DNA from: a virus | Taxonomy: Duplodnaviria; Caudoviricetes | Direction: 5' to 3' (one strand) | Virus record (IMG/VR): IMGVR_UViG_3300028835_000118 | Span: 1 to 60,441 of that record | DNA: 60,441 nt | Shown: piece by piece, positions 1,321-28,108 of the stretch | How the letters are laid out: every line of letters begins with the position of its first letter | Position numbering within the stretch: position 1 is the first letter of the stretch | Translations under genes and position numbers: made by a program | Notes under the pieces: model-generated | The model's database searches: none | Seen by the model: only the letters and a program-made list of their open reading frames with translations | What the model was told of the DNA's origin: nothing

Positions 1321-1352
1321 CAAAGATACGAAAAAAATTCGACATAAACAAA
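1321..1352 (-). promoter_or_regulatory. Bacteroidota sigma70 promoter, TTTG-N20-TATCTTTG
   Basis: -33 and -7 boxes at canonical spacing; spacer contains TGTCGA-N7-TCGTA. Confidence 0.75.
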
Positions 1353-2624: not shown

Positions 2625-3566
2625 ATGACAACACAGAGTAAAAATGCAGTTCTAAAGAAGGTGAAAGACACCTTGTTAGAAGGGCTTAAGAAGGATGGGC
2701 TACAATGGTTCAAACCTTGGAAATCAGGGGAGAATCACCCCATCAACAACAAATCAGGTAGAGCTTACAGGGGTTTTAATACTTTCATCCTAAACTATCA
2801 GATGGTAACAGAAGAGTATGATTACAACGAATGGGACACCTTCAAGAGCATATCTGCAAGGGGTGGAAAAGTTAAGAAGGGTCAAAGGGGAACGGATATT
2901 TTCTTTTGGTTAATCTCTTACTGCTCGAAGGAAAACTTCGGCACTTGGTACAGAACGAAAGCAGAGTGTATGCAGAAGGAAAATTGTACAGAAGATGAAG
3001 TTTTTACAAACTTCGACTTGAGATATTACAGAGTATGGAATATCGGACAATGTGAAGGGTTAAAGCCCCTGAGAAAATTAGGTGAGACGAAAGAAGTTAA
3101 GCCAATCGAAAGTTGCGAAAAAATCGTAGCGAAGTACAAGAAGATAGCTAAGAAGTTAACCTTCAAAGACGTTGAGCAGGACAGAGCTTACTACTCACCT
3201 TCGAAAGATATGATTGTAATGCCGTTAATGACTCAGTTTGATTCTGAAGATAAATATTATCATACTCTGTTCCACGAGATGATACATTCAACAGGTCACG
3301 ACTCGAGATTAAACAGAGAAGGAGTTGCTACAGCATATCAGTTAAATAAGACCAAACACGACTACGCATTTGAAGAGCTAATTGCAGAGAGTGGTGCGAT
3401 GGTGTTATCAGGTATGGCAGGAATCAACACAGATGACGAAAGCAAGCAATCTCAGGCGTATGTGAACGGATGGGTGAAGGCAGTAGAGAAAGCCGATGAG
3501 AAGGCAGTTGTTTCAGCTCTAACGCAGTCAGCGAAAGCTACTGACTACATCTTAGGGGTTAAGTAA
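2625..3566 (+). CDS. ardC: ArdC-like antirestriction protein (ssDNA-binding N-domain plus zincin metallopeptidase)
   Basis: WxKPW, GRAYRGFN, GGKVKKG, AYYSPSKDMIVMP, HEMIHSTGH and YAFEELIAE motifs. Confidence 0.88.
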   Translation: MTTQSKNAVLKKVKDTLLEGLKKDGLQWFKPWKSGENHPINNKSGRAYRGFNTFILNYQMVTEEYDYNEWDTFKSISARGGKVKKGQRGTDIFFWLISYCSKENFGTWYRTKAECMQKENCTEDEVFTNFDLRYYRVWNIGQCEGLKPLRKLGETKEVKPIESCEKIVAKYKKIAKKLTFKDVEQDRAYYSPSKDMIVMPLMTQFDSEDKYYHTLFHEMIHSTGHDSRLNREGVATAYQLNKTKHDYAFEELIAESGAMVLSGMAGINTDDESKQSQAYVNGWVKAVEKADEKAVVSALTQSAKATDYILGVK

Positions 3567-3576
3567 CCTCTAAGAT

Positions 3577-3620
3577 AGCTGAGAATGGTTGCAAAGGGGT
3601 TCGATTCCCCTTCTCAGCTC
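3577..3620 (+). ncRNA. Mini tRNA-like element 1 (acceptor-like stem, D-loop mimic, T-arm)
   Basis: AGCTGAGA/TCTCAGCT stem enclosing ATGGTTGCAA and AGGGG-TTCGATT-CCCCT. Confidence 0.7.
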
Positions 3621-3623
3621 TAA

Positions 3624-3657
3624 GTGGTCAACAGGGATTACCACAATCAAAATCCCT
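3624..3657 (+). ncRNA. H-type pseudoknot
   Basis: S1 GTGGT(3624-28)/ACCAC(3640-44); S2 AGGGATT(3633-39)/AATCCCT(3651-57). Confidence 0.6.
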
Positions 3658-3679
3658 TTAATTAAATATATATATAACT

Positions 3680-3946
3680 ATGACAAACACACACATTTGG
3701 GAAGGTTGGACGGCTCAAGATTTTATTGACCATCTCGAAGTAACATTTCCCTATGCGACATTCCACACATACGAAGAGCTGAAGGAGTGGTGCATAGCTG
3801 AGCAACCTTACTACAAGAAGCATATACCTGAAGTATATGAACACTTTGTAAGGAAGGTAATTTTTGAGCCAATAGAAGTGCCATCGGATTGGCAAGCAGA
3901 TTTGGAGGCGCAAGAGAATTATTTATGGGGAGATAAAAAAATTTGA
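3680..3946 (+). CDS. Hypothetical acidic early protein
   Basis: 88-aa ORF with TATATATAACT-ATG leader. Confidence 0.75.
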   Translation: MTNTHIWEGWTAQDFIDHLEVTFPYATFHTYEELKEWCIAEQPYYKKHIPEVYEHFVRKVIFEPIEVPSDWQADLEAQENYLWGDKKI

Positions 3947-3963
3947 TTGCAACTTGGCTGTAA

Positions 3964-4004
3964 TTCAGGAATGGTTAAGTGGGGGTTCGATTCCCCCACC
4001 TGAA
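3964..4004 (+). ncRNA. Mini tRNA-like element 2
   Basis: TTCAG/CTGAA stem enclosing GAATGGTTAA and GTGGGGG-TTCGATT-CCCCCAC. Confidence 0.68.
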
Positions 4005-4032
4005 CTAATTTTAATTTAATATATATATAACT

Positions 4033-4380
4033 ATGGGAAAATCTAAAGAGCAATTCTTACAGCTAAGAGAAAGCCGTAAGGCGTATCGAGAGATACAGGA
4101 AATCATTGCCTTTAACAAGGCAAATAAACAGCAAGGCATTACGCTTAGGTGCGTGCATTGTCGCAGTTGTGAAGTAACATATCATCAGAGTGTAGGGGAC
4201 GCATACTGCTCTGATTGTGGAGAGTGGCAAGCAGGCGAAGAGTTTGAGCAAACTGAATTACATATAGCCGAACAAATACAGGAAAATTTGCTAACGCTGT
4301 GTTCTGCATACGGACTGAATGACATAGAATTCCAAGACAAGATGTGCGATATCGTTGTTCAGGGGCTGAAAAAAAATTAA
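4033..4380 (+). CDS. Zn-ribbon-containing hypothetical protein
   Basis: CVHC..CSDC motif; TATATATAACT-ATG leader. Confidence 0.7.
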   Translation: MGKSKEQFLQLRESRKAYREIQEIIAFNKANKQQGITLRCVHCRSCEVTYHQSVGDAYCSDCGEWQAGEEFEQTELHIAEQIQENLLTLCSAYGLNDIEFQDKMCDIVVQGLKKN

Positions 4381-4409
4381 CCTGTTGGCGAAAAAAAAGT
4401 GTTAAAAAA

Positions 4410-4441
4410 TTTGCATATGTCGAAACTTTGTCGTATGTTTG
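4410..4441 (+). promoter_or_regulatory. Promoter TTTG-N20-TATGTTTG upstream of the tRNA-like cluster
   Basis: -33/-7 consensus; spacer contains TGTCGA-N7-TCGTA. Confidence 0.75.
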
Positions 4442-4450
4442 TTCAAAATT

Positions 4451-4519
4451 CGTGGGGAGTCGGTCTAAATTGGGGACTTGAAAACCCTAAGCAAGAAGGT
4501 TCAATTCCTTCCCCCACAA
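4451..4519 (+). ncRNA. D-armless tRNA-like RNA (9-nt anticodon loop centred on TGA)
   Basis: Acceptor CGTGGGG/CCCCACA (C1:A72); arm TTGGGG-ACTTGAAAA-CCCTAA; T-arm GAAGG-TTCAATT-CCTTC; no D-stem. Confidence 0.65.
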
Positions 4520-4542
4520 CTAACTTAAAATCAAAAACCACT

Positions 4543-4674
4543 ATGAGAAATTTAATTAAATATCTTACGTTAGGGAATGTTATAACATTCGCAGTATTAA
4601 CTTTCATCCTTGTCACTTGGAGTGCAGTAGTGTTCCATATCATAGCGACAGGGGGTTCAACAATTTCATTTTAA
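4543..4674 (+). CDS. Small membrane protein (43 aa)
   Basis: Start at the internal ATG (MRNLIKY..), one hydrophobic segment; the longer track ORF overlaps the promoter and the tRNA-like element. Confidence 0.65.
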   Translation: MRNLIKYLTLGNVITFAVLTFILVTWSAVVFHIIATGGSTISF

Positions 4675-4685
4675 TATATATAACT

Positions 4686-4931
4686 ATGAAAGGAAAAGGT
4701 TGGATAAACGACACCACTTACAGAGATTTCCCCTTGAATTTTATAGGGGACTCTGCAGGTGAAGAGCTTAGCTACTACGACAGGTTAGCTAACTATATAA
4801 AACACAATGACTTGCTTGACGAAGAACAAACACTTGAATTATTCGACAGGATTGAATCATTTATTGAGCAAGAGATTGAAGAAATTAAAGTGGAATCATC
4901 CTTAGATAATTGGATGATTCAACAAGGATAA
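4686..4931 (+). CDS. Hypothetical acidic protein
   Basis: Start MKGKGW after a TATATATAACT leader. Confidence 0.7.
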   Translation: MKGKGWINDTTYRDFPLNFIGDSAGEELSYYDRLANYIKHNDLLDEEQTLELFDRIESFIEQEIEEIKVESSLDNWMIQQG

Positions 4932-4939
4932 ATAATAAT

Positions 4940-5013
4940 AGCGAGGTAGAGCAGTTGGTCAGCTCGTTGGGTTCATATTCCAAAGGTCGCAGGTTCGAAT
5001 CCTGCCCTCGCAA
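4940..5013 (+). tRNA. tRNA-Met(CAT), initiator-like
   Basis: Full cloverleaf: AGCGAGG/CCTCGCA (1:72 mismatch), D-stem GAGC/GCTC, TTGGG-TTCATAT-TCCAA, GCAGG-TTCGAAT-CCTGC; CCA not encoded. Confidence 0.9.
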
Positions 5014-5014
5014 C

Positions 5015-5151
5015 AACCGAGTAGAGCAGTAGGTAGCTCGCTCTAACTTAACTGAAGACGGCAAGCAATGAGCTTAATTAACTCAAGCGAGTAGATGCAT
5101 ATACCAATCTTCAGGTTAGAGAAGTCGTGGGTTCGAGTCCCACCTCGGTAG
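5015..5151 (+). ncRNA. tRNA scaffold with a 64-nt structured insertion in the anticodon arm
   Basis: Acceptor AACCGAG/CTCGGTA; D-arm GAGC-AGTAGGTA-GCTC; extended arm CTCTAAC/GTTAGAG plus CTGAAGA/TCTTCAG; T-arm GTGGG-TTCGAGT-CCCAC. Confidence 0.82.
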
Positions 5152-5171
5152 CTAATTTTAATATAATAATT

Positions 5172-5414
5172 ATGGGAATAAAAAACCTGACATTTTGTAA
5201 CGATGAGAATGAACAAGTAGGTTTGTTTCTCTTGAATACCAAGGAAGGACAAACGATTTGGAATTTAAGCGAGCAACATTGCGAGTTAGAATTTCTTGTC
5301 AGAAAATATCACGGAAAAATTGGAATTCCTGATTGGGATTTTGCAGACAACTACGATGAAGGAATCGAGTGGGTTTGCTTTGAAGATTTGTTTAACACAC
5401 TAAATACTATATAA
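5172..5414 (+). CDS. Hypothetical protein
   Basis: Start MGIKNL after an AT-rich leader; the track start overlaps the T-arm. Confidence 0.7.
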   Translation: MGIKNLTFCNDENEQVGLFLLNTKEGQTIWNLSEQHCELEFLVRKYHGKIGIPDWDFADNYDEGIEWVCFEDLFNTLNTI

Positions 5415-5416
5415 CT

Positions 5417-5761
5417 ATGGGAAAAACACACGAAATCAAGCATTATATATTTGATTACTTAGGCACAGCCGATGGATACGAAATCGGTTGGCTACACGAA
5501 GAAGGTCAGAAAAACATTGATGACCCTGATTCAGAATTATTCTATGATAAATATGGGATGATGGATGTAGCGAAAGAACTTATTTTAGAAGGTCACAATT
5601 TCACTAACTATTGGTTAGATGATGAAGACATAGAAGAATGGGAAGAAGAAAGAGACAGATGTGAAGAGTGCGAAGGGGAAGGAACGATTATCTGTTCTAC
5701 TTACGATGACCCATACAACGAAGAGCCGTGTCCTGAATGTTCAGACCCACACGACTTATAA
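5417..5761 (+). CDS. Very acidic protein with a CxxCxGxG...CPEC zinc finger
   Basis: CEECEGEG..CPEC motif; D/E-rich. Confidence 0.7.
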   Translation: MGKTHEIKHYIFDYLGTADGYEIGWLHEEGQKNIDDPDSELFYDKYGMMDVAKELILEGHNFTNYWLDDEDIEEWEEERDRCEECEGEGTIICSTYDDPYNEEPCPECSDPHDL

Positions 5762-5764
5762 TAT

Positions 5765-6024
5765 ATATATAATTACTCACACCCCCCTTCATTTATGAAG
5801 GGTGTGAGTATTATATAAATACGAATCGATTAGGGACGAAGTGCCGATGTTGATTCAACTAACTTTTACTTGTATGAATTGCGAACGACAAGAAGAGTTA
5901 GACCACAGAGCAGATGATACCTTGGAGGTCGGAGTAGTTTTAGGGAACACAACCCAAGTTTGCTACAACGTCAGTTAATCATCTCACGGATGTAAAACAG
6001 GGGTTCGAATCCCCGTCTGCTCTC
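5765..6024 (+). ncRNA. Multi-hairpin structured RNA ending in a tRNA-like domain
   Basis: Three hairpins (about 5765-5817, 5823-5856, 5859-5901), then an AGAGCAGAT/GTCTGCTCT stem enclosing sub-hairpins and GGGG-TTCGAAT-CCCC. Confidence 0.62.
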
Positions 6025-6045
6025 TAACTTTTAAACACTACAAAT

Positions 6046-7266
6046 ATGGAAAAAGCAACCATTAAAAATTATGACCATCTTTTAAAGATAGATTGGTTCA
6101 ATCAGGTCTCTACTATAGAGGTTAACCTACACGAGAAGGGGGATAACTCGAAGACCACAACCTATAACTTTCGTTTGAATGAAGAGCAATCTGTATGTGA
6201 TGTTCTTACTGAACAGAAACTTATCAAAGATACAGACGAGGTTCGTCAACAAATTAACAGCGAAATTAATAAGCATATCAATAGTATTATTCAGAAGCGT
6301 CTAAATAACTATACTACAGCAGTTGACGTTCACAATATGTTAGTGGACTTAGATGTGAAAGACAAGAGACAATGGTCTTGTGGCGAAGCATACGAAGGTA
6401 AAATAAAATGGGGTGACGAAGTAGATTCAAACTTTGCGAGCCATCCATCCGAGGAATCATTTGTGTGTCCTACGGAAAACCTATGTTACTTCAATCCAAA
6501 AGCATTTGTGATTCGAATGGCTTGTCCCTATGACTACGATTGGAAAGCTGATAGATATAAGCATATATATAACAAAGATAAGTGCGTGGTAAATGTTAAT
6601 AGCTTTGGCGTATGCGACCTTGAGTTGCGTTTGGAATTCAAAAGCAAGGACTACAAAACAGGAGAGAGGTTTAACATTCCTAACCCTGCGTTATTCTATA
6701 ACCTTAGACAAAAAGATAATACCATAAGTAAGGTTAGCTTTATCGATGTGGCACTCTCAGAAAATAAATATAAGCCAATGGGAAAAGGACTTACTAAAAC
6801 ATATAAGTTTCAATCTTATTATGTGGGTAACGACTCGAGAAGTTTATCGTTAAATACATTTATAGTATACTGCCGTGAGAAATCTGACACCAACAGAAAG
6901 TTCTTTCTTCAGGATGTAGTTGAATCGGTAAACAAAGAAGAGATGTTAAAAGAGTTGAAAGAAAAGTTTGGTGAGGAGAATGTATTCAAGACAACAGCTT
7001 ACCAAAGCGATGTGAACTTTAAGAAGATGGATAGTTGGGGCAGGTATGGGTCGAAGGTAGTTAAGGTAATCCTGAAAGATGAGAGCTACTTGTTATATGA
7101 TTATACTGAGATAAAAAGAAACAAGAAATTAGAGCTTAGAGGTTTGTGGGATTCAAGCTACACAAAAGAATCAGTTAGTGATGCGTTTGAAAGAGTTATG
7201 AATAAGAATATAGAAGACAAATCTCTTGTCTCTGATATGATAGAAACAACATTTAACAATGAATAA
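6046..7266 (+). CDS. Hypothetical protein (406 aa)
   Basis: Long ORF with no motif I recognise. Confidence 0.8.
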   Translation: MEKATIKNYDHLLKIDWFNQVSTIEVNLHEKGDNSKTTTYNFRLNEEQSVCDVLTEQKLIKDTDEVRQQINSEINKHINSIIQKRLNNYTTAVDVHNMLVDLDVKDKRQWSCGEAYEGKIKWGDEVDSNFASHPSEESFVCPTENLCYFNPKAFVIRMACPYDYDWKADRYKHIYNKDKCVVNVNSFGVCDLELRLEFKSKDYKTGERFNIPNPALFYNLRQKDNTISKVSFIDVALSENKYKPMGKGLTKTYKFQSYYVGNDSRSLSLNTFIVYCREKSDTNRKFFLQDVVESVNKEEMLKELKEKFGEENVFKTTAYQSDVNFKKMDSWGRYGSKVVKVILKDESYLLYDYTEIKRNKKLELRGLWDSSYTKESVSDAFERVMNKNIEDKSLVSDMIETTFNNE

Positions 7267-7952: not shown

Positions 7953-8126
7953 ATGGAACTAGCAATAATAAGATATACCGAAGGCAATGGCAGGACGTAT
8001 ATAGTTGACATTACAAATGATGTTGACAAGTGGATAGTCGATAACAATTCTACTAGGGATGAAGACCAACAAGAAAAATTATCTGACTTTAATATAGAAT
8101 ATAAATCAATTAAACTTTATAAATAA
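7953..8126 (+). CDS. Hypothetical protein
   Basis: Internal ATG (MELAII); stop overlaps the next start. Confidence 0.6.
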   Translation: MELAIIRYTEGNGRTYIVDITNDVDKWIVDNNSTRDEDQQEKLSDFNIEYKSIKLYK

Positions 8127-8416
8127 TGAAAGTAAAAATTCAAAACCGAAGTGTCTACCACAAATTTGCTGAGGTAGAAATAGAAGTAGACAAGGATGAC
8201 TTGGAACATTTCATTCTTGATAGAAAAGGAATGGACATCCTTGATTACCTACAATATAACTGCCACCTTTATGATGAGCAGATAGATAAAGCTATGAGTG
8301 AAGCAGAGTATGAATATGGAAGTGGAGTAGATGACTACAGGGGAATGGTAGATGAATTAGATACAAGCGAATGGAGATTCGAGTGTGAAGAATTAAATAC
8401 AGGAGGTCACCTATGA
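8126..8416 (+). CDS. Hypothetical acidic protein
   Basis: Coupled ORF in the operon. Confidence 0.7.
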   Translation: MKVKIQNRSVYHKFAEVEIEVDKDDLEHFILDRKGMDILDYLQYNCHLYDEQIDKAMSEAEYEYGSGVDDYRGMVDELDTSEWRFECEELNTGGHL

Positions 8417-8661
8417 AAAATCTACAATACACTAACAGCGATATAGCTGAAGAGCTTAGCGAGTGTGCATCCGATTTGTTTTTCGAGTTGATGTTAGAGC
8501 TTGAAGGAACAGAGCTATATGATAAATATATAATAGACCACGGAACACACACACAAAGCACAGCTTTAGGTCAGGAATTATTCTACCGAATAGAAGATAG
8601 ATTGTTCAAGCTAAAGCTAACAGATATAGAAGAGCATTCTATATTTGATGTTAAAAAATAA
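8413..8661 (+). CDS. Hypothetical acidic protein
   Basis: ATGA overlap with the previous ORF. Confidence 0.7.
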   Translation: MKNLQYTNSDIAEELSECASDLFFELMLELEGTELYDKYIIDHGTHTQSTALGQELFYRIEDRLFKLKLTDIEEHSIFDVKK

Positions 8662-8726: not shown

Positions 8727-9092
8727 ATGACAAAATTATTATCTTATGAAGGGGCGACCTTCAGAACACTAGAGAAAGACGAAATGTATTTCGATGGTGG
8801 CAGTTGGAAGGTAGGTTCATTAAACAATGTATGCTACCAAGAATTAATTGACCTCTTTGGACAACCCACTTGGAATAGAGAGAGTGGAGATTTCAAAGTG
8901 CAAATGGAATGGGCGATTGAAGTGAACGATGGTGACAAGGTTTATATCCTACGCATCTATGATTGGAAAACTTATGACAGAGATTACACGATGTCACAGC
9001 TTAAAACTTGGAGCATAGGAGGTAACGATGATGGGAATCCATATCTGCTAAAGTCGTTTGTTCATACACATCAATCAGTATTATCTAATTAA
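8727..9092 (+). CDS. Hypothetical phage protein (FGxP..K..EW..IYDWK..WSIGG type)
   Basis: Motif pattern resembles small phage proteins; function unknown. Confidence 0.75.
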   Translation: MTKLLSYEGATFRTLEKDEMYFDGGSWKVGSLNNVCYQELIDLFGQPTWNRESGDFKVQMEWAIEVNDGDKVYILRIYDWKTYDRDYTMSQLKTWSIGGNDDGNPYLLKSFVHTHQSVLSN

Positions 9093-19267: not shown

Positions 19268-22200
19268 CTATTGTATTGGGTCGAACACATTTTTTCTTGT
19301 TCTTCTAGTTCGAGTTCTATTTCTTTGGTTGATTGGTGCGAACACATCACTATTGTTTAGATTATTGCTTTGTCTTTTCTTTCTTTCTTGTTCTTTGTAA
19401 TACTCTGCATTCTGTTCAGCTATACTTTTTGTTTTTTTGGTAGACTTTTTTTGTCCCCCTTCAATTACATAATCAGAAAAGTTGAACAATCTTAAAATGT
19501 CTGTACCTATATCACCTGTCTTACCCATTTTCTCTAAGTTATTTACAAACCTAGTTACTTGAGTGGCAGGTAAACCTGTGGTGTTTACTATCTCTATATA
19601 TAACTTAGCAAAGTTTGCTGCTCTTTTCTCAGGGTCTTTAGTATTTAAAGCTCTTGTTGCAAGTTGAGAAATTCTAGCGATAGACATTAGTGGAGCAATA
19701 CTTTTACCTTGCTTACCTGCGTATGGCTTCTGCTGTATTACATCAGCAATTTGATTTACAGCATCACCCACGATAAACAAAGCATTCAGGTTACCAATAA
19801 CCATAGCTCTAATTAAATCTTCTTCATCATCAGGACGCACAGGTCTAAGTAATCCCGGTAATCCTAATGCTACATATTGGAATAGAGTAGGAGCTAATAA
19901 ATGATAAGTAATAAAGGTTCTTAAGTTTTCACCTAGTGTACCTTTACCTGCGTTTCTATCCCAAGCTTTTAACTTTCTCCAAAGATTACGAGTAGATTGA
20001 ATTTCTTTTCTTAAGTATTGTTTAGGTGTAGTTAAGAACATATTCAAACCTCTTTGTAATGCACCTGCAGTTTGGTAGTAGTCTCTATCCTGTAAGTCCA
20101 TCGACTGCTGTGTTCTCTTGGTATCTTTTTCAAATTTAATTATAGCTTCTTTCTGTGCTTGTTCTTCAGATAACCCACGCTTTAATGCTTGGTCTTTGTA
20201 GTATAAATAGTTAGGCATACCTCCAAGATAGATAGCTGCCTTATCTCCAAACTTAGTTGAGTACATAATAAAGTTTACATAGAAATCCCAATACTGATTA
20301 GGAACAAACTCTGTCATTCCATCCTCGGTGTAAGACTCAATAACTCTAGTAATCGATTGTCGGTTTCTGTCTTGCATATAAACAGAGTTCTCAGATATTT
20401 CTTTAAACGTCTTCTTAATCTGAGGAATATTTTTTAGAGAATACTTTAACCAATTCCTAAAGCCGATATCATTTGCATATGTAATCATAGATGTTAACTG
20501 CTTTAACATAACAGTTGGGTTCAAACCAATTCTAGAAAATATAAATAGGTTGTTCATATAGTTAACGAATCTATCTGCTCGGTTATCCCTCACTCCTTTG
20601 TTAGCTATCTTACCTATCATATCCCTAATCAATCTGTTTACATAGTCTCCATGAATAGCACCGATAGCATCTTTAACTTGCTTGTTGGTAAACATTTTGT
20701 ATATGTCTCTAATGGTTTCACCATAAGCTGCAAAGTATTCCATGTCTCTTAGGTACGTTGCCATTACATTCATATTGTTCATCTTTCTAATAGGAAGATT
20801 GTTTTGGGTTCGAGACTTAGTAGACGAAGCACCAACCGAGGTATTCATAATAGATTTGTCAGACAACATATCAAGAGGTTGTTGTTCAATTGGATTACCT
20901 TGAGTGTCGTTTCTATATATCATCCCTGCATAAAATCTATTCCAAGGAAGATTAGTTCTATATAATGCTTTATATGTTTTGTTATAGTGCTCATACAACG
21001 AAGGGTAGAATTCATTTACTTGCCAATCAGCAAACTCTTTTACCTCATCTTCCATTTTAGATTCTATCTCCTCCATAATTCTTACATAGTCTTTTCCAAA
21101 AGTAGCTTTGAACGAACCTGCATTAGCAGGGTCTTTGTAAAGGTTATAGTAATACATCATTTCATTTTGACTAAGATGTACTGAGTTTTCTAGAAGAGCT
21201 TTTTCTAAAGCTTGCTTGTTTTCTAAACTTGGATTAGTATTAAAATCATTTTCTGCTTTAGCAACTGCATCAGGGTCTAATAAATAAGTAGCTTCTTTTG
21301 CAGGCTTATTATTATCTCTTACTTTATTTCTCCATTTTTTCCCATATAACTCTTCAAACTTTTTAGATATAATACCTTCTTGTTCCATCATCCTTCTCTT
21401 AAACATTCTACTAGACGCATCAACTCTTCCGGTTACCATCTCCTGCAGTCTACCTCCAAACATTTCCCCGGGCAAAGTAGATATCAAATCCATAAGACCA
21501 TCTAAGGCTTCAGCTTCATTAAAGAATTTAGTAACCATTGTGTTAAGCTTGGTTGTAAATTTTCTTAATACCCCTTTAAGTTTATTTCTTTTAGCGTTTA
21601 ATCTTTTCTGATTTTTAAGGTCCACTTCGGAACGAGTACCTTTATCTCCTAAGTCTGTCTTCTCACCTGTAACTTCTTCATAAGCGATAGACGCATCTTC
21701 ATTATATTTATTATGTTGGTCTTCAAGCTGTTGCTTTAACTCACTCCTACCTATTTCAATCATCTCCTCTAATGCTGCAAGAGCTGTATCTAAAGAACCT
21801 GTCTTATTGACATCTGTATTCTCCATTAACAATGAGTTGTTTAGATTAATTAAAATTTGAAGGTCAACCATACGGCTAAAATCTCCTTCAGTCGTTTGAG
21901 ATTTTGCTGCTATACTATTAAACTCTTGAGTTAGTGCTTCGTTCTCAGCCTCTATTTGTTTGGCTGTGGAATTCTTGCCTAACCTATCTTGTTTAATCTT
22001 TTCAATTCTTTCTTTAATATTTAAACTAATCTTAGTCCCCTTCTTTCTGCCTGATACTTTAGTTTCATACTTACCGTTAAGAATATTTTCAATTTTATTC
22101 TCTAGCCTTGCATTATTTTTTTTGTTTACAAACTCTAACACTTCCTCAAATATATTCTCAAGGTTTGTTTCGTTTGCATTAGTAACTTTTCTAATAAGGC

Positions 22201-25200
22201 TCATCACTTCACTACGAGTATATATATCTGCAGGTAAAGATTTTCTGATAAAGTTTCTTATAGCTGCCTTAGCTTTCTGTAAATCTTTAGCACCACGCTT
22301 TCTTTGTTGTACCATTCTACGAGCAGCAGTAAGCTTCTCTTGTACGTTTTCACTTGTCCTAGTACCCACAGCTCTTTGGAACTCCACTTGAAGCATAGCT
22401 TGTTTAGTAGTTAGATTTTTAGTTCCATCACCTTCGTTCTTATATTCAGGTTGTTGAGTTAGGAATTCAATAGTTTGGTCTGCTATTTGCTGTTCTGTAA
22501 GCTTGACCTTTCTCCTCTTATTTCCTTTAATAAGTTTTTGTTCAAAAGCTTTTACTCTTTTAAACAACTTGACACCTGCTTCCATACCACCCTGTATGTT
22601 GGCAAATGTTTTAGGTAAAGTGTTAAATAAATCTACATCGATATTCATTAGCTTGTTAACTACACTTGCAGGATATCCCTTAACTCTAACCAAATAATCT
22701 TTGATAAGTTCATCTCGGAAATTGTATTCAGTTCTACCTTCTACAATTATATCTACTATATCTTTTTGCTCTCGTCCTCTAGGACTCAAGATAATCTTTT
22801 TAGTTTGAGCTTCATCTAATATTTTACCTGTTAATGGAGTGTTTTCTTGAATAGCTTTTTCAACTCGGTGATGTCCATCTATTAACAACAAACCATCTTT
22901 GGTTGTAGCAATAATAACAGGCTGACTAAGGTCTGCATTTTCAATTCCCTCTTCAGTCTTTGTAACAAAAGCATAGGTCATCTTAGGAAGAATATCCATA
23001 GGTAATTTTACAGACTGAGTTTCTTGAGTGTTAACTATATTCATGGCACCATCTATGTCATAATTTGTTTCTCCAAAAGTAAACACCTGACCATCTGCTT
23101 CTTGCTGTTGTTCTCTACCCCTAGGCTTAGCAATTATTTTTTCAGTTATCTGCTCAAATAATGGGGGTTTAGATTGTGCAATTAAACTTGTCGCTGAAGC
23201 CTGCCCTACTACCATTAAGTCTTTGTTCTTATATTTAAACTCTACTTTATTCTCACCTTTAAGGTCGGTGTAAGTACGCTGTGATAAAGGTTTATTTCTT
23301 ACTTCCGGCTTATAAAACTTATCATCTTGATATTGCTCTATTACTCTTTCATTAATCTCCACCTCTTTAGTCTTATCCTTCAATAAAGTTTCAGGCATAA
23401 AAGGTTGTAACGATTCCTTCACGCTATATAGTCCATCAAATATTACTGCTGAGTTAGCCTCGGAAGGAACTTTACCAACAAAGAAAGGATGAGTGATTCC
23501 TTTATCTTGTGTTTCTTCCACTAAAGATTTGGTGTCTTCCGGAACTACATAAGTAAATCCACCTACTACATATCCTCCCTTGTTTTCTTTTAAAACTGTT
23601 TCGCCTAGCAATGCTTTATCTCCATACTCTAAGTTAAAGTCTTGAGTGTTAGTTCCATTATCAAGTAATGCTTTTTTATAGGCAGGAGTAGACTTGTTTG
23701 TTTTTAATGAAGGTGAACTTGGTATAATACCCTGCATATAATATCTTCTTCTATCAAAGCTTTCATTCTTCATAGCGTCTGTGAATTCAGTTTCAGAAAA
23801 AGAACTTGGGTCTATAATTATAGCTTGAACTTCCGGGGAAAGAGCTCCACCCATTCTACTGTTTGAATAGGAAGCCATCTCTTTAGAATACTTCTTATAC
23901 GCAGCAGGGTCTTTTCTTTGTAAGTCTTCTAATGCATCATATAAAAATTCTGACCCATACATATTTCCATACATAGCATCAGGGGTCTGTATCATAATTG
24001 CCACACCAACCCTATCGCCTGCCTTGTATTTATTTTTAAGCTTATTCATATTGCTTAAAGCTTTGCCGGCATTCTCAGATGCAAACCCTACACCATTCTC
24101 ATTGTTATCTTTTAGAGCTGCATAACCAAAACCACCAAGTAAATCTTTTTCAGGGTCTAAAGCTGTAGCATCAGAATTAATTACATAAATATTTCCATTG
24201 TGTTGCGCAGCAAAATCGTTAAGAGTAGTTGTAGGTAGGTCGGATACATTCTCTCCTTTATAAACTTGCTGTTCTCTGCCCGGAACTTTTTCAGCTTTAG
24301 CTTTAGGATTTACTGTAGCTGCTACTCCATTATCAGAATAAGGCTCTGACTTTTCTAGTACCTTAAAGTCATTAACAAAAACTTCTTGACCCATTGCCAC
24401 TTTATCTGCCAAAGTGTTAAGTAAATCTACTACTGCTGCATCGTCTTGAGTTATATTAGGACTAATGTCTATTAGCTTATCTATTCCTAAAGTTCTAGCT
24501 GTAGATTTTAAAAAGTTTAATATAGCATTTTGCGCAGGTCTCTCTAGTCGCTGATAGTTGCTTGACATAATACCAAATAATTCTGCTAATCTCTCCTCGT
24601 TTTGAACAGTCATTCCTTGGCTTTTATATTGCTTCGCAAATGCGTCAGCTTTTTTATAAAGCATTGTGTTTTTATCTACAGCACTCATTACCCCTTTAGT
24701 AAGCATGTTAACTGCCTTTGCTATATTGGCTTCGCCTAATCTTTCAAACAACATAGCGTGAAAAGCTTCATGAGCCACGGTAGTTTCAATAGCTTTATTC
24801 ATATCTATATGAATGGTATTAGTATCAAAGTCGTAAAACCCTCTACCTTTTCTACCTGTAGCATTATTAAACTCATCCGAAGATTCGTGTAAAACTATTT
24901 TAGTTTTAAAATTTTTAGCTAATGACTTAGCTGCTTTCACGGCTCTATTTATAACCTTGTTACGCATAGAAGTTTGTTCCTTATCTAAAGCACCTTTAGG
25001 TTTACCTTTTCTATTAAAGAATAAATTATTTGTTACTCCTGTTTGGTCTTCTTTACTTCCAAAAGCTTCTTCAATGTCTTGCTTTTCTTCTATAGTTATA
25101 TCTCCATCACTATCCGTTTCTTCTGTTTCTGTTTGGGTTGCAACTGTACCTAACTCCGGTATACTTGCCTCTGCTTTTGCAGCAGCTTCTTGTTGTTGGG

Positions 25201-28108
25201 CAGCAATAACTGTAATGTTTTCAAGTTGCTCATTTATTTCAGCTATTCTGTCTTGGTCTTTTTTGGTTAGCTGTTTATTTTTACCATCAATTTTATTCTC
25301 TAGGTTTTGTTTTTCTAACAATAAGTTTAAGGCTACTCTTGATTGTTGAACTGTATAATCAGTCGGAATAGATGGCATCAAGGCTTCTATCTGATTATAG
25401 TTAGCTAATAAACCATCAGCACCTGCCTGAGTTAGTGGGTCGTTAGGGTCAGCTACTCTTTGTTTTAGATTGGTAACAAACATTTTTTTGTATGAGGGGT
25501 CTTTCAACATCTCTTGATACCACGCAAAAGCTTCGTCAGAAACTAAATCTAAATCGTTAGGGTTACTTGCCATAGCAGATATAGCTGTAGGTACTGCCAT
25601 TACTTTACCACCAAGAGCTTCAAGATATCCTTGATACGCTACCTCTTTAAAAAATGCTCCTACTGATTGAGGAGTATTAAACGCTGCATCTTTTCCTAAA
25701 AGTTTTTCTCTAGCTAAGTTATATATATACTCTGAACTTAATTCAGCTACAGTTTGTAAAGCTCCTGTTTCAAATTCAGTCGCTGCACCTGCACCTAATA
25801 CTAATCCACCTTGAGCTGCTGCAATTTTCCACGCATCTTTACCTTGGTCACGCATCAGGTTTTTTAAATCTTTTCTAATAAATTCAGCAAAGGTTTTACT
25901 TGTTGTTGTTTTATTAGTTTTTAATAAAGCTCTTCCTACTAAACCATTTACAAACCCTTGTTGTGTTAGTAAGTTTCTGAAACCATAATCTTCTAATATA
26001 GCAGTAGCAATAGCTACAGGATATGCAATTATTCTTTTTTCTCCTTCATTTATGTTGTCAAAGTTTGGATTCATTGCCATCTTTTGCAATTGAGCGTCTG
26101 TACTTTGAGCCATTAATCTTACAATCCTCGTAGTCTTGTTTATATTTTTACGATTCTGAATCAATTTTTTCCCAAGCTCAGGACCATACTTCATCGTAAG
26201 TTCTCCTGTTTTTTTGGCACCTGTTTTTAAAATACCAATGAAAGCCGGAATAGAATAGGTCACCCCATGCATAGCTTTTTGAAAATCATTCCCTTTATTT
26301 TTATAGGCTTTTCTTAAAAATTCTTGTGGGGTATCTTCTTGTCCTAAATATCTAGTAAATATGGAATTAAATGCTTCTCTACTTCCTGACTCTAACTCTC
26401 TTCCAATAAAACCTGCTTGTCCCGTGTAAGGATTACGATTAAAAGCATCACCCCTCGCTGCACTTTTAGCTCTATCTACCCCTGTAATAATTTCTCCTGT
26501 ACCAATTCTAATTCCACCTTCTCCCTTCTGTGTGTCAAGTATATCGGTTGCATAAAAACCGGTAGGGTCTCCCCCTCTTTCTTGAAAAGATTTTCTATAA
26601 ACTTGATTCATTGCATTTACGGTATAGTCTCGTAAATCATCACCATCTGCATTCTCTATGCTTTGAAACAAAGCCTTACCATTAGTGCTTCCAATTTCTA
26701 GCATTAATTTTTTTAACCTCTCTTGGTCATAAGCATCAAGATTAGTTCCCTTATCTAATATTCCTTTTATCTGTGCTACCTCATCAGCATACTCGCCTCC
26801 TAGTATATTGACATCATCTACCTTATATTTCTGCTCTCTATTTTGGGACAATAAATCTATAGCAAAATCTACATGAGAATCAAAATCTTCATCTACATCT
26901 ACAGGGTTAAGTGCGTATTCTATAGGTGCTATAATTCCTGAATATAATTCATTAGGTAACGAAGTAATAGCTCCACCAACACCACCTAAAAAAGATTTAA
27001 GAAGTCGTTCTATACCTAACAATCCTCCCTTGGCTTCTGTAGCAGCATAACGAGCATCTACAAATTCTCCTACCATCAAGTCAAACTCTCTTCCTTTCTG
27101 CTGAAAACTTAATTGACGCTTATGCAATGCGTCTTGCACCATATCAAGACGGTCTGAAGCCATCTTATAGGTGTTGTAGTTAGGGTCGGCAGCTAGTTCT
27201 TGAGGAGTTTTTCCGGCAAAAGAGTTCTTATATATTTTTTCTAATCTAATTTTTTCTGCTGAATAAGCTTTTACATCTTCAGCAAACCTATCCACTTGTG
27301 TATTAAACAAAGTGTTTAAAGCCATCAACTCTTTTTCGTCTTGAATTTTATTTAGCTTAAATTCTTCCTTTTTCAGACCTTCAGCAAAAGCTAGTTCAGA
27401 TGCTTCTCTATTATCTTGTAGAAACTTTTTAAGTTCATTAGCTCTTTTCTTTGCATTAATTTCTAGACCTTCAAAGAATGGCATACCAAAAGCATCTAAT
27501 GGTACAGTCATTTCCTCACCGTTGGCTGAGGTTACTTTCATTTTATCACCTGCACCTGTCTCTTCAAACTTAAAACCATACTGCCCAAACTTGTAGTTCA
27601 TTTCAGGGACTACTGATTCTTCTTCTCTATCTGAGGTTAGCTTTTCATCAATAAAATCTATATTAGCTTGAAAGACATTATCGTCTAAATTTTCCCCGTA
27701 CTCTTTTGATAAAATAGTATTTGCAAATGGGTCAGAGGTATCAAATGTTCTCTGAGTTAAATATGATTCCGAAGTAATATCGTCTCCCGTTAAACCGGAA
27801 GGAGATGCCGGAGGTGTAAGGGGGGTTTGTTCCGGAGGTAGATTGATTTCGTTTGGCTGATTTAAGTCTACGTTTAGATTTTTTTTTTCATCCACATCTG
27901 TCGATACTATTTCTACAGATTCACCTCCAAAACCTATATCATTTTTAAAAGTATTCATGTCAGGCATATCAAAATGCTGCAGCATACTTTCTCTAAACCT
28001 TGCTAGCTTCTCTTCGTCTTGCATATCTACCACAAACTGTTCGTAGGGTGGCATATCAAAATGTTGTTGCGCACTTTGGTAGACTCTTTGTAATACTTCC
28101 TCATTCAT
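19268..28108 (-). CDS. Giant polyvalent-type ejection/internal virion protein with a zincin metallopeptidase and a ParB-like domain
   Basis: RGFYD..IHID..TVAHEAFH..NEERLAE; PVIIA..LLLIDGHHRV; last large gene of the virion module. Confidence 0.75.
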   Translation of the reverse strand: MNEEVLQRVYQSAQQHFDMPPYEQFVVDMQDEEKLARFRESMLQHFDMPDMNTFKNDIGFGGESVEIVSTDVDEKKNLNVDLNQPNEINLPPEQTPLTPPASPSGLTGDDITSESYLTQRTFDTSDPFANTILSKEYGENLDDNVFQANIDFIDEKLTSDREEESVVPEMNYKFGQYGFKFEETGAGDKMKVTSANGEEMTVPLDAFGMPFFEGLEINAKKRANELKKFLQDNREASELAFAEGLKKEEFKLNKIQDEKELMALNTLFNTQVDRFAEDVKAYSAEKIRLEKIYKNSFAGKTPQELAADPNYNTYKMASDRLDMVQDALHKRQLSFQQKGREFDLMVGEFVDARYAATEAKGGLLGIERLLKSFLGGVGGAITSLPNELYSGIIAPIEYALNPVDVDEDFDSHVDFAIDLLSQNREQKYKVDDVNILGGEYADEVAQIKGILDKGTNLDAYDQERLKKLMLEIGSTNGKALFQSIENADGDDLRDYTVNAMNQVYRKSFQERGGDPTGFYATDILDTQKGEGGIRIGTGEIITGVDRAKSAARGDAFNRNPYTGQAGFIGRELESGSREAFNSIFTRYLGQEDTPQEFLRKAYKNKGNDFQKAMHGVTYSIPAFIGILKTGAKKTGELTMKYGPELGKKLIQNRKNINKTTRIVRLMAQSTDAQLQKMAMNPNFDNINEGEKRIIAYPVAIATAILEDYGFRNLLTQQGFVNGLVGRALLKTNKTTTSKTFAEFIRKDLKNLMRDQGKDAWKIAAAQGGLVLGAGAATEFETGALQTVAELSSEYIYNLAREKLLGKDAAFNTPQSVGAFFKEVAYQGYLEALGGKVMAVPTAISAMASNPNDLDLVSDEAFAWYQEMLKDPSYKKMFVTNLKQRVADPNDPLTQAGADGLLANYNQIEALMPSIPTDYTVQQSRVALNLLLEKQNLENKIDGKNKQLTKKDQDRIAEINEQLENITVIAAQQQEAAAKAEASIPELGTVATQTETEETDSDGDITIEEKQDIEEAFGSKEDQTGVTNNLFFNRKGKPKGALDKEQTSMRNKVINRAVKAAKSLAKNFKTKIVLHESSDEFNNATGRKGRGFYDFDTNTIHIDMNKAIETTVAHEAFHAMLFERLGEANIAKAVNMLTKGVMSAVDKNTMLYKKADAFAKQYKSQGMTVQNEERLAELFGIMSSNYQRLERPAQNAILNFLKSTARTLGIDKLIDISPNITQDDAAVVDLLNTLADKVAMGQEVFVNDFKVLEKSEPYSDNGVAATVNPKAKAEKVPGREQQVYKGENVSDLPTTTLNDFAAQHNGNIYVINSDATALDPEKDLLGGFGYAALKDNNENGVGFASENAGKALSNMNKLKNKYKAGDRVGVAIMIQTPDAMYGNMYGSEFLYDALEDLQRKDPAAYKKYSKEMASYSNSRMGGALSPEVQAIIIDPSSFSETEFTDAMKNESFDRRRYYMQGIIPSSPSLKTNKSTPAYKKALLDNGTNTQDFNLEYGDKALLGETVLKENKGGYVVGGFTYVVPEDTKSLVEETQDKGITHPFFVGKVPSEANSAVIFDGLYSVKESLQPFMPETLLKDKTKEVEINERVIEQYQDDKFYKPEVRNKPLSQRTYTDLKGENKVEFKYKNKDLMVVGQASATSLIAQSKPPLFEQITEKIIAKPRGREQQQEADGQVFTFGETNYDIDGAMNIVNTQETQSVKLPMDILPKMTYAFVTKTEEGIENADLSQPVIIATTKDGLLLIDGHHRVEKAIQENTPLTGKILDEAQTKKIILSPRGREQKDIVDIIVEGRTEYNFRDELIKDYLVRVKGYPASVVNKLMNIDVDLFNTLPKTFANIQGGMEAGVKLFKRVKAFEQKLIKGNKRRKVKLTEQQIADQTIEFLTQQPEYKNEGDGTKNLTTKQAMLQVEFQRAVGTRTSENVQEKLTAARRMVQQRKRGAKDLQKAKAAIRNFIRKSLPADIYTRSEVMSLIRKVTNANETNLENIFEEVLEFVNKKNNARLENKIENILNGKYETKVSGRKKGTKISLNIKERIEKIKQDRLGKNSTAKQIEAENEALTQEFNSIAAKSQTTEGDFSRMVDLQILINLNNSLLMENTDVNKTGSLDTALAALEEMIEIGRSELKQQLEDQHNKYNEDASIAYEEVTGEKTDLGDKGTRSEVDLKNQKRLNAKRNKLKGVLRKFTTKLNTMVTKFFNEAEALDGLMDLISTLPGEMFGGRLQEMVTGRVDASSRMFKRRMMEQEGIISKKFEELYGKKWRNKVRDNNKPAKEATYLLDPDAVAKAENDFNTNPSLENKQALEKALLENSVHLSQNEMMYYYNLYKDPANAGSFKATFGKDYVRIMEEIESKMEDEVKEFADWQVNEFYPSLYEHYNKTYKALYRTNLPWNRFYAGMIYRNDTQGNPIEQQPLDMLSDKSIMNTSVGASSTKSRTQNNLPIRKMNNMNVMATYLRDMEYFAAYGETIRDIYKMFTNKQVKDAIGAIHGDYVNRLIRDMIGKIANKGVRDNRADRFVNYMNNLFIFSRIGLNPTVMLKQLTSMITYANDIGFRNWLKYSLKNIPQIKKTFKEISENSVYMQDRNRQSITRVIESYTEDGMTEFVPNQYWDFYVNFIMYSTKFGDKAAIYLGGMPNYLYYKDQALKRGLSEEQAQKEAIIKFEKDTKRTQQSMDLQDRDYYQTAGALQRGLNMFLTTPKQYLRKEIQSTRNLWRKLKAWDRNAGKGTLGENLRTFITYHLLAPTLFQYVALGLPGLLRPVRPDDEEDLIRAMVIGNLNALFIVGDAVNQIADVIQQKPYAGKQGKSIAPLMSIARISQLATRALNTKDPEKRAANFAKLYIEIVNTTGLPATQVTRFVNNLEKMGKTGDIGTDILRLFNFSDYVIEGGQKKSTKKTKSIAEQNAEYYKEQERKKRQSNNLNNSDVFAPINQRNRTRTRRTRKNVFDPIQ

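Follow-up and report, generated by a model that had tools for sequence, protein, structure and literature searches.

Known tRNA-like elements and the present locus

The ends of messenger RNAs (mRNAs) can be marked by tRNA-like structures, the t-elements, which are cut by RNase P and RNase Z. Punctuation by tRNAs is also known from animal mitochondria, and the MALAT1 transcript gives rise to mascRNA. Minihelices consisting of an acceptor stem and a T arm are substrates for RNase P, RNase Z and the CCA-adding enzyme, and a CCA end blocks RNase Z. Promoters, terminators and RNase E or Y are the main factors that shape bacterial messages; to our knowledge, tRNA-like punctuation is textbook material for organelles and not for phages. 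A further tRNA mimic, YrlA, is circularly permuted, ending at the anticodon-stem position and bearing a loop-capped acceptor stem and a Ro-binding stem. Published accounts place t-elements in plant mitochondria and also in haloarchaea (PMC1920247), describe YrlA as a bacterial Y RNA (RF02553; PMC4201824), and report 8/4 and 9/3 allo-tRNAs, found in phages among others, which have working anticodon arms and for which charging and decoding were shown (PMC5389517). Here we compare with these systems a stretch at positions 5765-6024 of a complete viral genome of 60,441 base pairs (bp) with direct terminal repeats (IMG/VR record IMGVR_UViG_3300028835_000118), hereafter called the window.

An initial annotation had read this stretch as one novel phage non-coding RNA of about 260 nucleotides (nt), free of open reading frames (ORFs), with several hairpins and a tRNA-like 3' end. 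Judged by sequence comparison, the stretch is three modules, with clear constraint only on the acceptor/T/elbow core of the last of them, a tRNA-like domain at 5908-6022 that we call TLS-B (this label and TLS-A, for 5016-5149, were coined in this analysis). The window phage carries five tRNA-like elements and one true tRNA between its + strand early genes. TLS-B may be a tRNA-derived, non-decoding RNA element that keeps only what tRNA-processing enzymes read, a view to which we give about even credence. That the tRNA-like elements are processing signals like the t-elements of plant mitochondria, cut by host RNase P and RNase Z, seems to us evenly poised between right and wrong. We place TLS-B with tRNA-like processing or mimic elements, and regard the wider class of 41-nt minihelices described below as the more interesting lead.

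The phage elements resemble t-elements in that an acceptor stem and a T arm are present, a working anticodon domain is not, and the elements border protein-coding messages; the tRNA 5' and 3' endonucleases are proposed to make mRNA ends in both. They differ in belonging to DNA phages of bacteria, in their strongly conserved 10-nt GG linker, and in forming a series that is reduced stepwise from about 130 to 41 nt, often with a hairpin upstream. In tRNA punctuation and mascRNA, a tRNA or tRNA-like fold within a long transcript similarly sets the cut site. Those folds are full cloverleaves, whereas the phage elements are minihelices or expanded, degenerate cloverleaves, and the bacterial host of the phage does not normally process messages in this way.

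Structure and covariation of TLS-B

Eighty related loci were collected with the window primase as query. The relatives of the window phage are uncultured marine podovirus-like phages, with the Flavobacterium 'elemo' phages more distant; the closest among the compared loci is L004, whose primase is 96% identical. Population variants were read from DNA contigs of four other metagenome runs, including X3 and X4; marine and cold-seep sites are where this DNA is found. All stems named in the initial annotation, i.e. the hairpins, the closing stem and the cloverleaf-like arms, were found where it had placed them (Table 1), and the 266-nt stretch folds at -84.7 kcal/mol against -58.4 kcal/mol (standard deviation 4.9) in 200 shuffles, none of which was equally stable (z = -5.3; 0/200).

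Across five full TLS-B orthologues every stem cell is paired (75/75). Covariation is present in the TLS-B core, where 10 of 15 pairs change on both sides; the covariation score for these five orthologues is 0.69 versus 0.28 in shuffles, a value as high being reached in 0/500, and only 39-48% of cells are paired when the pairing partners in the alignment are slid. The closing stem had been given as 9 bp. Comparison backs eight of these pairs, 5908-5915 with 6015-6022, which form the acceptor stem, whereas the ninth (5907/6023) never covaries and by eye is A.A in L063. The eighth acceptor pair, 5915/6015, is U.G in four orthologues and U-A in one, the would-be fifth pair of the T stem is mismatched, and the resulting 12-bp helix is split 8/4. 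A GGTTCGA.TCC core is invariant.

Apart from this invariant sequence the orthologues differ. For example, L063 and L006 carry wholly different acceptor sequences, L005 has a shortened tRNA-like domain, and L010 has only the acceptor stem, the GG linker and the T arm. Acceptor pairs and discriminator change from one orthologue to another; L005 and L063 lack the anticodon-like hairpin, and only the window and L004 possess the variable arm. In the natural variants, 6001G>A occurs with 6013C>T and 5936A>G with 5964T>C (X3 and X4), and 5945G>A occurs with 5953C>T (X4), all compensatory; the remaining differences, including indels of 1, 2 and 11 nt, are confined to the central domain 5936-5990. The loop that reads AACACAA in the window is AUCAUAA in L004 and in natural variants. 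Since the anticodon-like and variable arms decay freely, TLS-B is not a decoding tRNA. A pairing of an internal GTTAG with the trailer CTAAC, noticed by eye, is broken in the window (GTCAG) and inapplicable to the minihelices, and was dropped.

This drift of the central domain, with the loss of the anticodon-like hairpin, the restriction of the variable arm to two genomes and the altered loop, would suit a decaying tRNA gene without present function, as would the patchy occurrence among relatives. We nevertheless consider such decay very unlikely: the acceptor and T stems survive complete sequence turnover, contrary to neutral decay, the evidence of selection is strong, and the reduced 41-nt form recurs in unrelated phages.

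Comparison with known RNA families

At gathering scores, the sole Rfam match in the whole window is tRNA-Met at 4940-5013. In E-value mode, positions 5600-6200 gave 10 weak matches, none near its own threshold, the best being microRNA models on hairpin 1 and tmRNA (12 bits) on the T loop, and RF00005 gave no match to this region even at E <= 10. The default and intron modes of ARAGORN found nothing at TLS-B, and lowered thresholds returned only poor, conflicting models; its tmRNA mode likewise found nothing, and its mitochondrial mode gave nothing or only such models. The assertion that the stretch matches no known family was thus borne out: Rfam and ARAGORN make no call on it, and no tmRNA, YrlA or other family reaches threshold there. 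A genuine, conserved and covarying tRNA-like 3' domain is present, and it lies outside the curated families; TLS-B is none of those compared.

Of the canonical tRNA features, TLS-B has the T loop TTCRANY closed by G-C and a GG in the D loop (TTGG at 5922-5925). A 5-bp anticodon stem with a 7-nt U33 loop was not found at TLS-B, where the inner stem is 3 bp and position 33 is A. The varying acceptor pairs and discriminator would argue against a single synthetase identity. Like the allo-tRNAs, TLS-B occurs in phages and divides its 12-bp acceptor/T branch 8/4, and in the window and L004 it also bears a long variable arm; it differs in its anticodon domain, which is irregular or absent among the orthologues, and the allo-tRNA pairing of such a variable arm with a functional anticodon arm is not found. 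An unusual working tRNA of this 8/4 kind, charged and decoding with a CAU-type anticodon, would have precedent in genuine bacterial and phage tRNAs of that geometry (PMC5389517), and the loop A-U-CAU-A-A of L004 and natural variants would supply the anticodon. The window loop, however, has no U33 and its 3-bp inner stem lies between large internal loops; neither L005 nor L063 has the anticodon-like hairpin; acceptor pairs and discriminator are unconserved; and neither ARAGORN, even with introns, nor the Rfam tRNA model at E <= 10 responds. We therefore hold a decoding role to be highly improbable.

With the tRNA-like domain of tmRNA, TLS-B has in common the acceptor stem, the T arm, a short GG D-loop mimic and the absence of an anticodon arm, and real tmRNA genes lie in the like region of L055 and of Cellulophaga phage phi14:2. 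TLS-B differs in having neither a message-like reading frame nor pseudoknots; its position 3:70 is G-C and not the G.U of tmRNA, and its 12 bits for the Rfam tmRNA model, against a threshold of 47, come from the T loop only. Like TLS-B, YrlA uses a T arm and a D arm to imitate the tRNA elbow, and it is often associated with phages or tRNAs. It is permuted and has a Ro-binding stem, whereas TLS-B ends in an acceptor stem and not in an anticodon stem, and RF02553 does not match TLS-B. The hallmarks of a t-element are present, namely an elbow-forming acceptor stem and T arm that lack a decoding domain, and a position at coding-gene borders on the coding strand, although this context is unclear in high-GC contigs.

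A series of tRNA-like elements between early genes

The initial annotation was right in calling the element uncurated, but TLS-B is not a lone novelty: it is one of the five elements, which lie with the true tRNA-Met between 3.5 and 6.1 kb (Table 1). The simplest are minihelices of 41 nt. Minihelix 1 is placed 11 nt past the stop of an ArdC-like gene, over whose stop codon there is a hairpin (z = -4.1); a minihelix follows the ArdC-like gene in the window, L004, L005 and L063, and all four have a hairpin over the stop codon, each of different sequence. Minihelix 2 ends 28 nt short of an ATG at 4033. With Rfam in E-value mode, positions 3400-5300 gave sub-threshold matches only, including a weak tRNA-Sec match on the intermediate element (23.6 bits, below the 47-bit threshold). 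In TLS-A, which ARAGORN and Rfam at gathering scores leave uncalled, a long helix and an insert of roughly 60 nt replace the anticodon arm. CTAA follows within 0-2 nt after four of the five elements, including TLS-B, and one base later at 5016-5149. That TLS-B is one of five and is kin to a widespread 41-nt minihelix points to a cis-acting boundary signal and not to a stand-alone regulator.

Table 1. Features of the window discussed in the text
Feature	Positions	Strand	Description
Minihelix 1	3578-3618	+	41 nt; acceptor/T arm, linker AATGGTTGCA; covariance model R2, 72.2 bits
Minihelix 2	3964-4004	+	41 nt; 6-bp acceptor and 6-bp T stem; R2, 66.7 bits
Intermediate tRNA-like element	4452-4517	+	6-bp acceptor, one inner hairpin, T arm GAAGG-TTCAATT-CCTTC
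tRNA-Met (true tRNA)	4940-5014	+	anticodon CAT; ARAGORN; Rfam 62.9 bits
TLS-A	5016-5149	+	expanded; canonical D and T arms; directly after tRNA-Met
Hairpin 1 module	5766-5818	+	core stem 5775-5813 extended by A-U pairs
Hairpin 1 core stem	5775-5813	+	read in the sequence
87-nt insertion	5818-5904	+	holds hairpin 2 (5823-5857) and hairpin 3 (5859-5901)
Hairpin 2	5823-5829 with 5851-5857	+	read in the sequence
Hairpin 3	5859-5873 with 5888-5901	+	read in the sequence
Closing stem	5907-5915 with 6015-6023	+	read in the sequence; 8-bp acceptor stem of TLS-B is 5908-5915 with 6015-6022
TLS-B	5908-6022	+	orthologues in L004, L005, L063 and L006; minimal form in L010
ACCT-TGG-AGGT	5919-5929	+	read in the sequence; D hairpin of TLS-B, loop bearing GG
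GTAG/CTAC	5934-5937 with 5963-5966	+	encloses GGG-AACACAA-CCC, 5943-5955; with 5943-5945/5953-5955 (loop AACACAA) the bipartite anticodon-like arm
CATCT/GGATG	5980-5992	+	read in the sequence; variable arm
T arm GGGG-TTCGAAT-CCCC	6000-6014	+	read in the sequence; 4 bp, 6000-6003/6011-6014, canonical loop TTCGAAT
Trailer	6023-6048	+	discriminator-like T6023, conserved CTAACTTTTAAACACTACAAAT, ATG of ORF 6046-7266

Scans for a T loop with a 12-bp acceptor/T stack covered the window and 81 loci, i.e. 82 sources totaling 1.365 Mb. They found 35 matches on the gene strand and none on the opposite strand (31 versus 1 in an earlier version, with 0.2 expected from shuffles), distributed over 21 of the 82 sources. 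Most of the 35 elements lie within about 50 nt past a stop codon, and in 15 the next ATG is 20-35 nt downstream. The minihelix covariance model R2 gave 23 matches, all on the + strand, with 93.6% of cells paired versus 63.8% in shuffles and strong covariation. A strong hairpin (z < -2) occupies the 50 nt upstream of 13 of 30 elements, several ending 1-6 nt before the element.

The trailer behind TLS-B is kept in all six aligned sequences (6/6) though the downstream protein differs, and N-CTAA follows most members of the tRNA-like family. The ATG of ORF 6046-7266 lies 22 nt past the cloverleaf-like domain (5907-6023), and in L082 a true tRNA-Thr occupies the equivalent place with the same trailer. 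As a side observation, the 406-aa protein of this downstream ORF belongs to no family and evolves very fast, with identities of 40% in L004 and 26-30% in L005 and L063.

This placement might suggest that RNase Z cleavage leaves the element attached to the upstream message as a tRNA-like 3' end, where it would either stabilize that message or retain the terminating ribosome for translation of the following gene, 20-35 nt downstream. The spacing of 15 of the 35 elements agrees with this, as do the trailer and start, which form a conserved cassette, and the minihelices of many unrelated contigs, which begin 4-16 nt past the upstream stop. Such coupling leaves the strong upstream hairpin without a role, however, and some copies are far from ORFs or within tRNA arrays; we judge it distinctly unlikely.

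A wider class of 41-nt minihelices

The motif AATGGTTGCA-N5-GTTCGATTC, which fixes the linker and the T loop only, has 36 matches in 28 viral and 7 genome stretches. Of the 36 matches, 32 have perfect 6+6-bp stems and the other 4 a single mismatch. Four of the viral contigs are relatives already in the set and the rest are unrelated, with a locus GC between 0.33 and 0.66; the class spans viral contigs with a locus GC of 27-66%, and two copies lie within tRNA arrays of large phages (L101 and L104). The genes found upstream are of diverse kinds, and the distance from the upstream stop codon to the minihelix is 4-16 nt in many unrelated contigs, whereas some copies are far from any ORF, and in high-GC contigs the intergenic status is ambiguous. 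The consensus consists of a 6-7-bp acceptor stem, a linker AAUGGUUGCA, a 6-bp T stem and a loop UUCGAUU.

The 32 distinct rows, not all of them independent, have a fully (100%) paired T stem and reach a covariation score of 1.105, versus 0.20 in shuffles. All four Watson-Crick types occur at 11 of the 12 core pairs, the exception being the invariant G-C that closes the T loop. These 12 pairs contain 13 G.U against 2 A.C and 1 A.G over the 32 rows, and the excess of G.U over A.C (13 versus 2) favors an RNA fold on this strand. A looser motif, TGGTTGCA-N5-GTTCRAWTC, returned 33 new loci, of which 28 are the 3' halves of ordinary tRNAs and 5 are minihelices; as it yields mostly tRNA halves, the motif does not force the minihelix fold. 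By eye, position 74 is C in 23 of 32 rows and position 75 is rarely C, i.e. the trailer avoids CCA.

We tentatively propose that these sequences form one class, as yet unnamed, of 41-nt 'tRNA-elbow minihelices' found in unrelated phages and in the tRNA arrays of large phages, with TLS-B at its expanded end; through them, phages might either borrow host tRNA-maturation enzymes to punctuate their messages or soak up a host factor that reads the elbow or the acceptor end. This proposal as a whole is possible rather than probable in our estimation. No description of such phage minihelices was found in the literature, although the supplements of a catalogue of 10,006 candidate viral structured RNAs may list them (PMC10690425).

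The second of these roles can be framed as a trans-acting decoy or sponge: the elements, released or within the message, would bind a host factor that reads the elbow or acceptor end and so shield host or phage tRNAs during takeover. Candidate targets are a tRNA-directed defense nuclease, a CCA-end-modifying toxin, SmpB or a tRNA-modifying enzyme. Several copies occur in the earliest region beside an anti-restriction-like gene (ArdC-N and MPTase-PolyVal), and others within the tRNA arrays of large phages. Moreover, the linker AATGGTTGCA is conserved over loci of 27-66% GC beyond any apparent need of processing, and with its anticodon arm lost the element itself would be no target for anticodon nucleases. 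On the other hand, the binding partner is still only hypothetical, the tight stop/start placement on the gene strand alone suggests a cis role, and the acceptor sequences differ freely, which leaves no sequence-specific acceptor mimicry. A decoy is therefore unlikely in our view; if true, it would represent a new kind of RNA-based counter-defense.

Proposed processing of early messages

The reading as t-element-like processing signals starts from the parts that TLS-B keeps, i.e. the 12-bp coaxial acceptor/T helix (8/4), the T loop and the GG-bearing D-loop mimic, which would build the tRNA elbow. An early + strand polycistronic transcript would run through the elements. Host RNase P would cut the 5' end of TLS-B at about 5907/5908 and RNase Z would cut after the discriminator, at about 6023/6024, the latter being proposed because the trailer reads CTA and not CCA. 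Together the two cuts would break up the early polycistronic transcript to yield single messages, the role that tRNAs and t-elements play in organelles, with the hairpin just upstream capping the new 3' end of the upstream message and the conserved A/T-rich trailer becoming the 5' leader of the downstream gene. If this cleavage by RNase P and RNase Z is real, phages of several bacterial phyla tailor their early messages with host tRNA machinery, and this would account for tRNA-finders missing many 'almost tRNAs' in phage genomes. The 41-nt form is small and strongly covarying, and hence amenable to direct in vitro testing.

Several points weigh against the processing signal. Structure, conservation, covariation, strand bias and gene-boundary position belong to the elements as observed; from these we infer everything beyond folding, i.e. 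transcription through the elements, the two cleavages and their effect. The presence of the elements is patchy (21/82 sources, with no minihelix in MW202828.1 and four named phages), which implies that they are dispensable for this gene order. The linker AATGGTTGCA is more conserved across very different phages than plain processing needs, and another binding partner may exist. TLS-B and its trailer move as a cassette, standing beside different genes in L063, and this also fits a role in downstream gene expression or in recombination. Finally, the minihelices of the phage family are nearly all Watson-Crick, with 1 G.U in 174 cells, and the argument for RNA over DNA consequently rests on the wider set.

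Another reading is a boundary module acting at the DNA level, either as recombination sites that shuffle early genes or as phage polymerase signals, for which the promoter/stem-loop cassettes of T4-type phages provide a model. Elements do mark boundaries in a fast-changing region, where the downstream protein of L004 is 40% and the primase 96% identical; the flanking genes of L063 are rearranged around the element; the sequence CTAACTTTTA borders both the 87-nt insertion and the element; and a hairpin-1-like module stands ahead of a different element in L006. There is nevertheless no DNA-level reason to keep the T-loop consensus and the D-loop-mimic GG, the stems have G.U and A.C in a ratio of 13 to 2, the trailer has no Bacteroidota-type promoter pattern, and shuffling could be a mere side effect of repeated sequence. 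A DNA-level module thus appears rather improbable.

The promoter pattern used here, TTTG-N17-23-TANNTTTG, follows the Bacteroidota consensus. It has no occurrence at TLS-B, in its trailer or after TLS-B, and the trailer was accordingly rejected as a promoter. Window-wide the pattern is not clearly enriched (8 versus 3.6 expected; 6/100 shuffles as high). Early + strand sites lie at 2264-2295 and at 4410-4441, the latter reading TTTG-N20-TATGTTTG and ending about 10 nt before the element at 4452-4517. Sites at 2264 and 4410 would make minihelices 1 and 2 internal to an operon.

Hairpins 1-3 as separate modules

The idea that the 260 nt form one unit did not survive comparison: in L004 the tRNA-like domain comes immediately after hairpin 1, in L005 it stands by itself, and in a DNA contig of run X4, a natural variant without hairpins 2 and 3, position 5817 is joined to 5905. 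The hairpin 1 module begins 5 nt past the stop of ORF 5417-5761 and is 93% identical to L004 3301-3359. In L006 a hairpin-1-like hairpin (1317-1346) precedes a different tRNA-like element, the minihelix at 1357-1397. As an intrinsic terminator, hairpin 1 offers a stem and no U tract (tail TTATATAAATA), and a terminator scan made no call.

The 87-nt insertion with hairpins 2 and 3 is absent in L004. Neither blastn nor nhmmer found 5818-5904 at any other locus, except for one weak nhmmer match (E 0.0041), in L006, which begins within hairpin 1 and extends to query position 109. Hairpin 3 opens with the 10-mer CTAACTTTTA, and the same 10-mer stands right after TLS-B (positions 5859 and 6024). The description of the stretch as ORF-free is nearly true in that it contains no coding ORF; two short ORFs overlap it, 5841-5978 (+, 45 aa, GTG start) and 5855-5950 (-, 31 aa), and these are noncoding because variants bear indels of 1, 2 and 11 nt and L004 lacks 5818-5904.

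Occurrence and genome context

Beyond the collected loci, blastn with 5700-6100 as query retrieved nothing from the phage collection, the 406-aa neighbor protein as query found no related loci in viral_contigs, and an exact search with a 27-mer (T arm and acceptor strand) found no further loci. The R2 model found no minihelix in the whole records MT497078.1, PP540027.1, ON950054.1, NC_021806.1 and MW202828.1, the last being the nearest GenBank relative and the other four cultured or named phages; its sole match was the 3' half of a tRNA-His. Among sequencing runs, a search with 3400-6400 listed no RNA run containing the stretch, and the contigs compared were DNA only. Pfam and PHROGs scans of 21 ORFs, about 15 of which belong to the roughly 30 + strand early ORFs, revealed no tRNA-processing enzyme, with many small early ORFs left unscanned.

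Several neighboring features can be recorded. The first large early gene of the window, at 2625-3566, encodes ArdC-N and zincin-like MPTase-PolyVal domains and is thus anti-restriction-like. On the - strand, positions 33455-38953 encode an 1832-aa tail protein with an N-terminal crAss 'muzzle' domain (Pfam PF25731, 34.5 bits), and positions 19268-28108 a 2946-aa protein that has neither a Pfam family nor a DFDxD motif and whose only PHROG match is weak and of unknown function. The notion that the latter is a crAss-type virion RNA polymerase using the hairpins as promoters was set aside as unsupported (no Pfam family, no DFDxD). At the junction of tRNA-Met and TLS-A, a sub-threshold YrlA match spans 4985-5039 (25.2 bits versus 69), and the 3' acceptor strand of tRNA-Met is able to pair with the 5' acceptor strand of TLS-A.

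Genuine tmRNA genes were seen in two of the compared loci. In the relative L055, expanded tRNA-like elements at 8119-8214 and 8777-8882 flank an ARAGORN tmRNA (8292-8652), about 1.5 kb ahead of the primase. In L084 (NC_021806.1, Cellulophaga phage phi14:2) the predicted tmRNA, at 4031-4500, falls in a long gene-free early region, and there is a T-arm-like site near 1830; the abundant transcripts of this region are left unexplained in the preprint that reports them (10.1101/2020.03.07.982082). Expanded elements in L053 (6815-6936) and L059 (8646-8767) have in common a tRNA-Leu-like D arm and an insert of ~65 nt that is nearly identical between them and might constitute an independent functional domain; in their acceptor and T stems, by contrast, they differ entirely.

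Two further sequence motifs accompany the early genes. The promoter-like sites at 1321-1352 (-) and 4410-4441 (+), facing left and right respectively, share an extended motif, TTTG..TATGTCGAA..TCGTAT.TTTG, and a sequence like it follows a minihelix in L006. In addition, TATATAACTATG occurs in four exact copies, at window positions 3671, 4024, 4677 and 5408, each ending in the start codon of an early gene; with at most one mismatch, 5 copies were found versus about 1.04 expected, a number reached in 0/100 shuffles.

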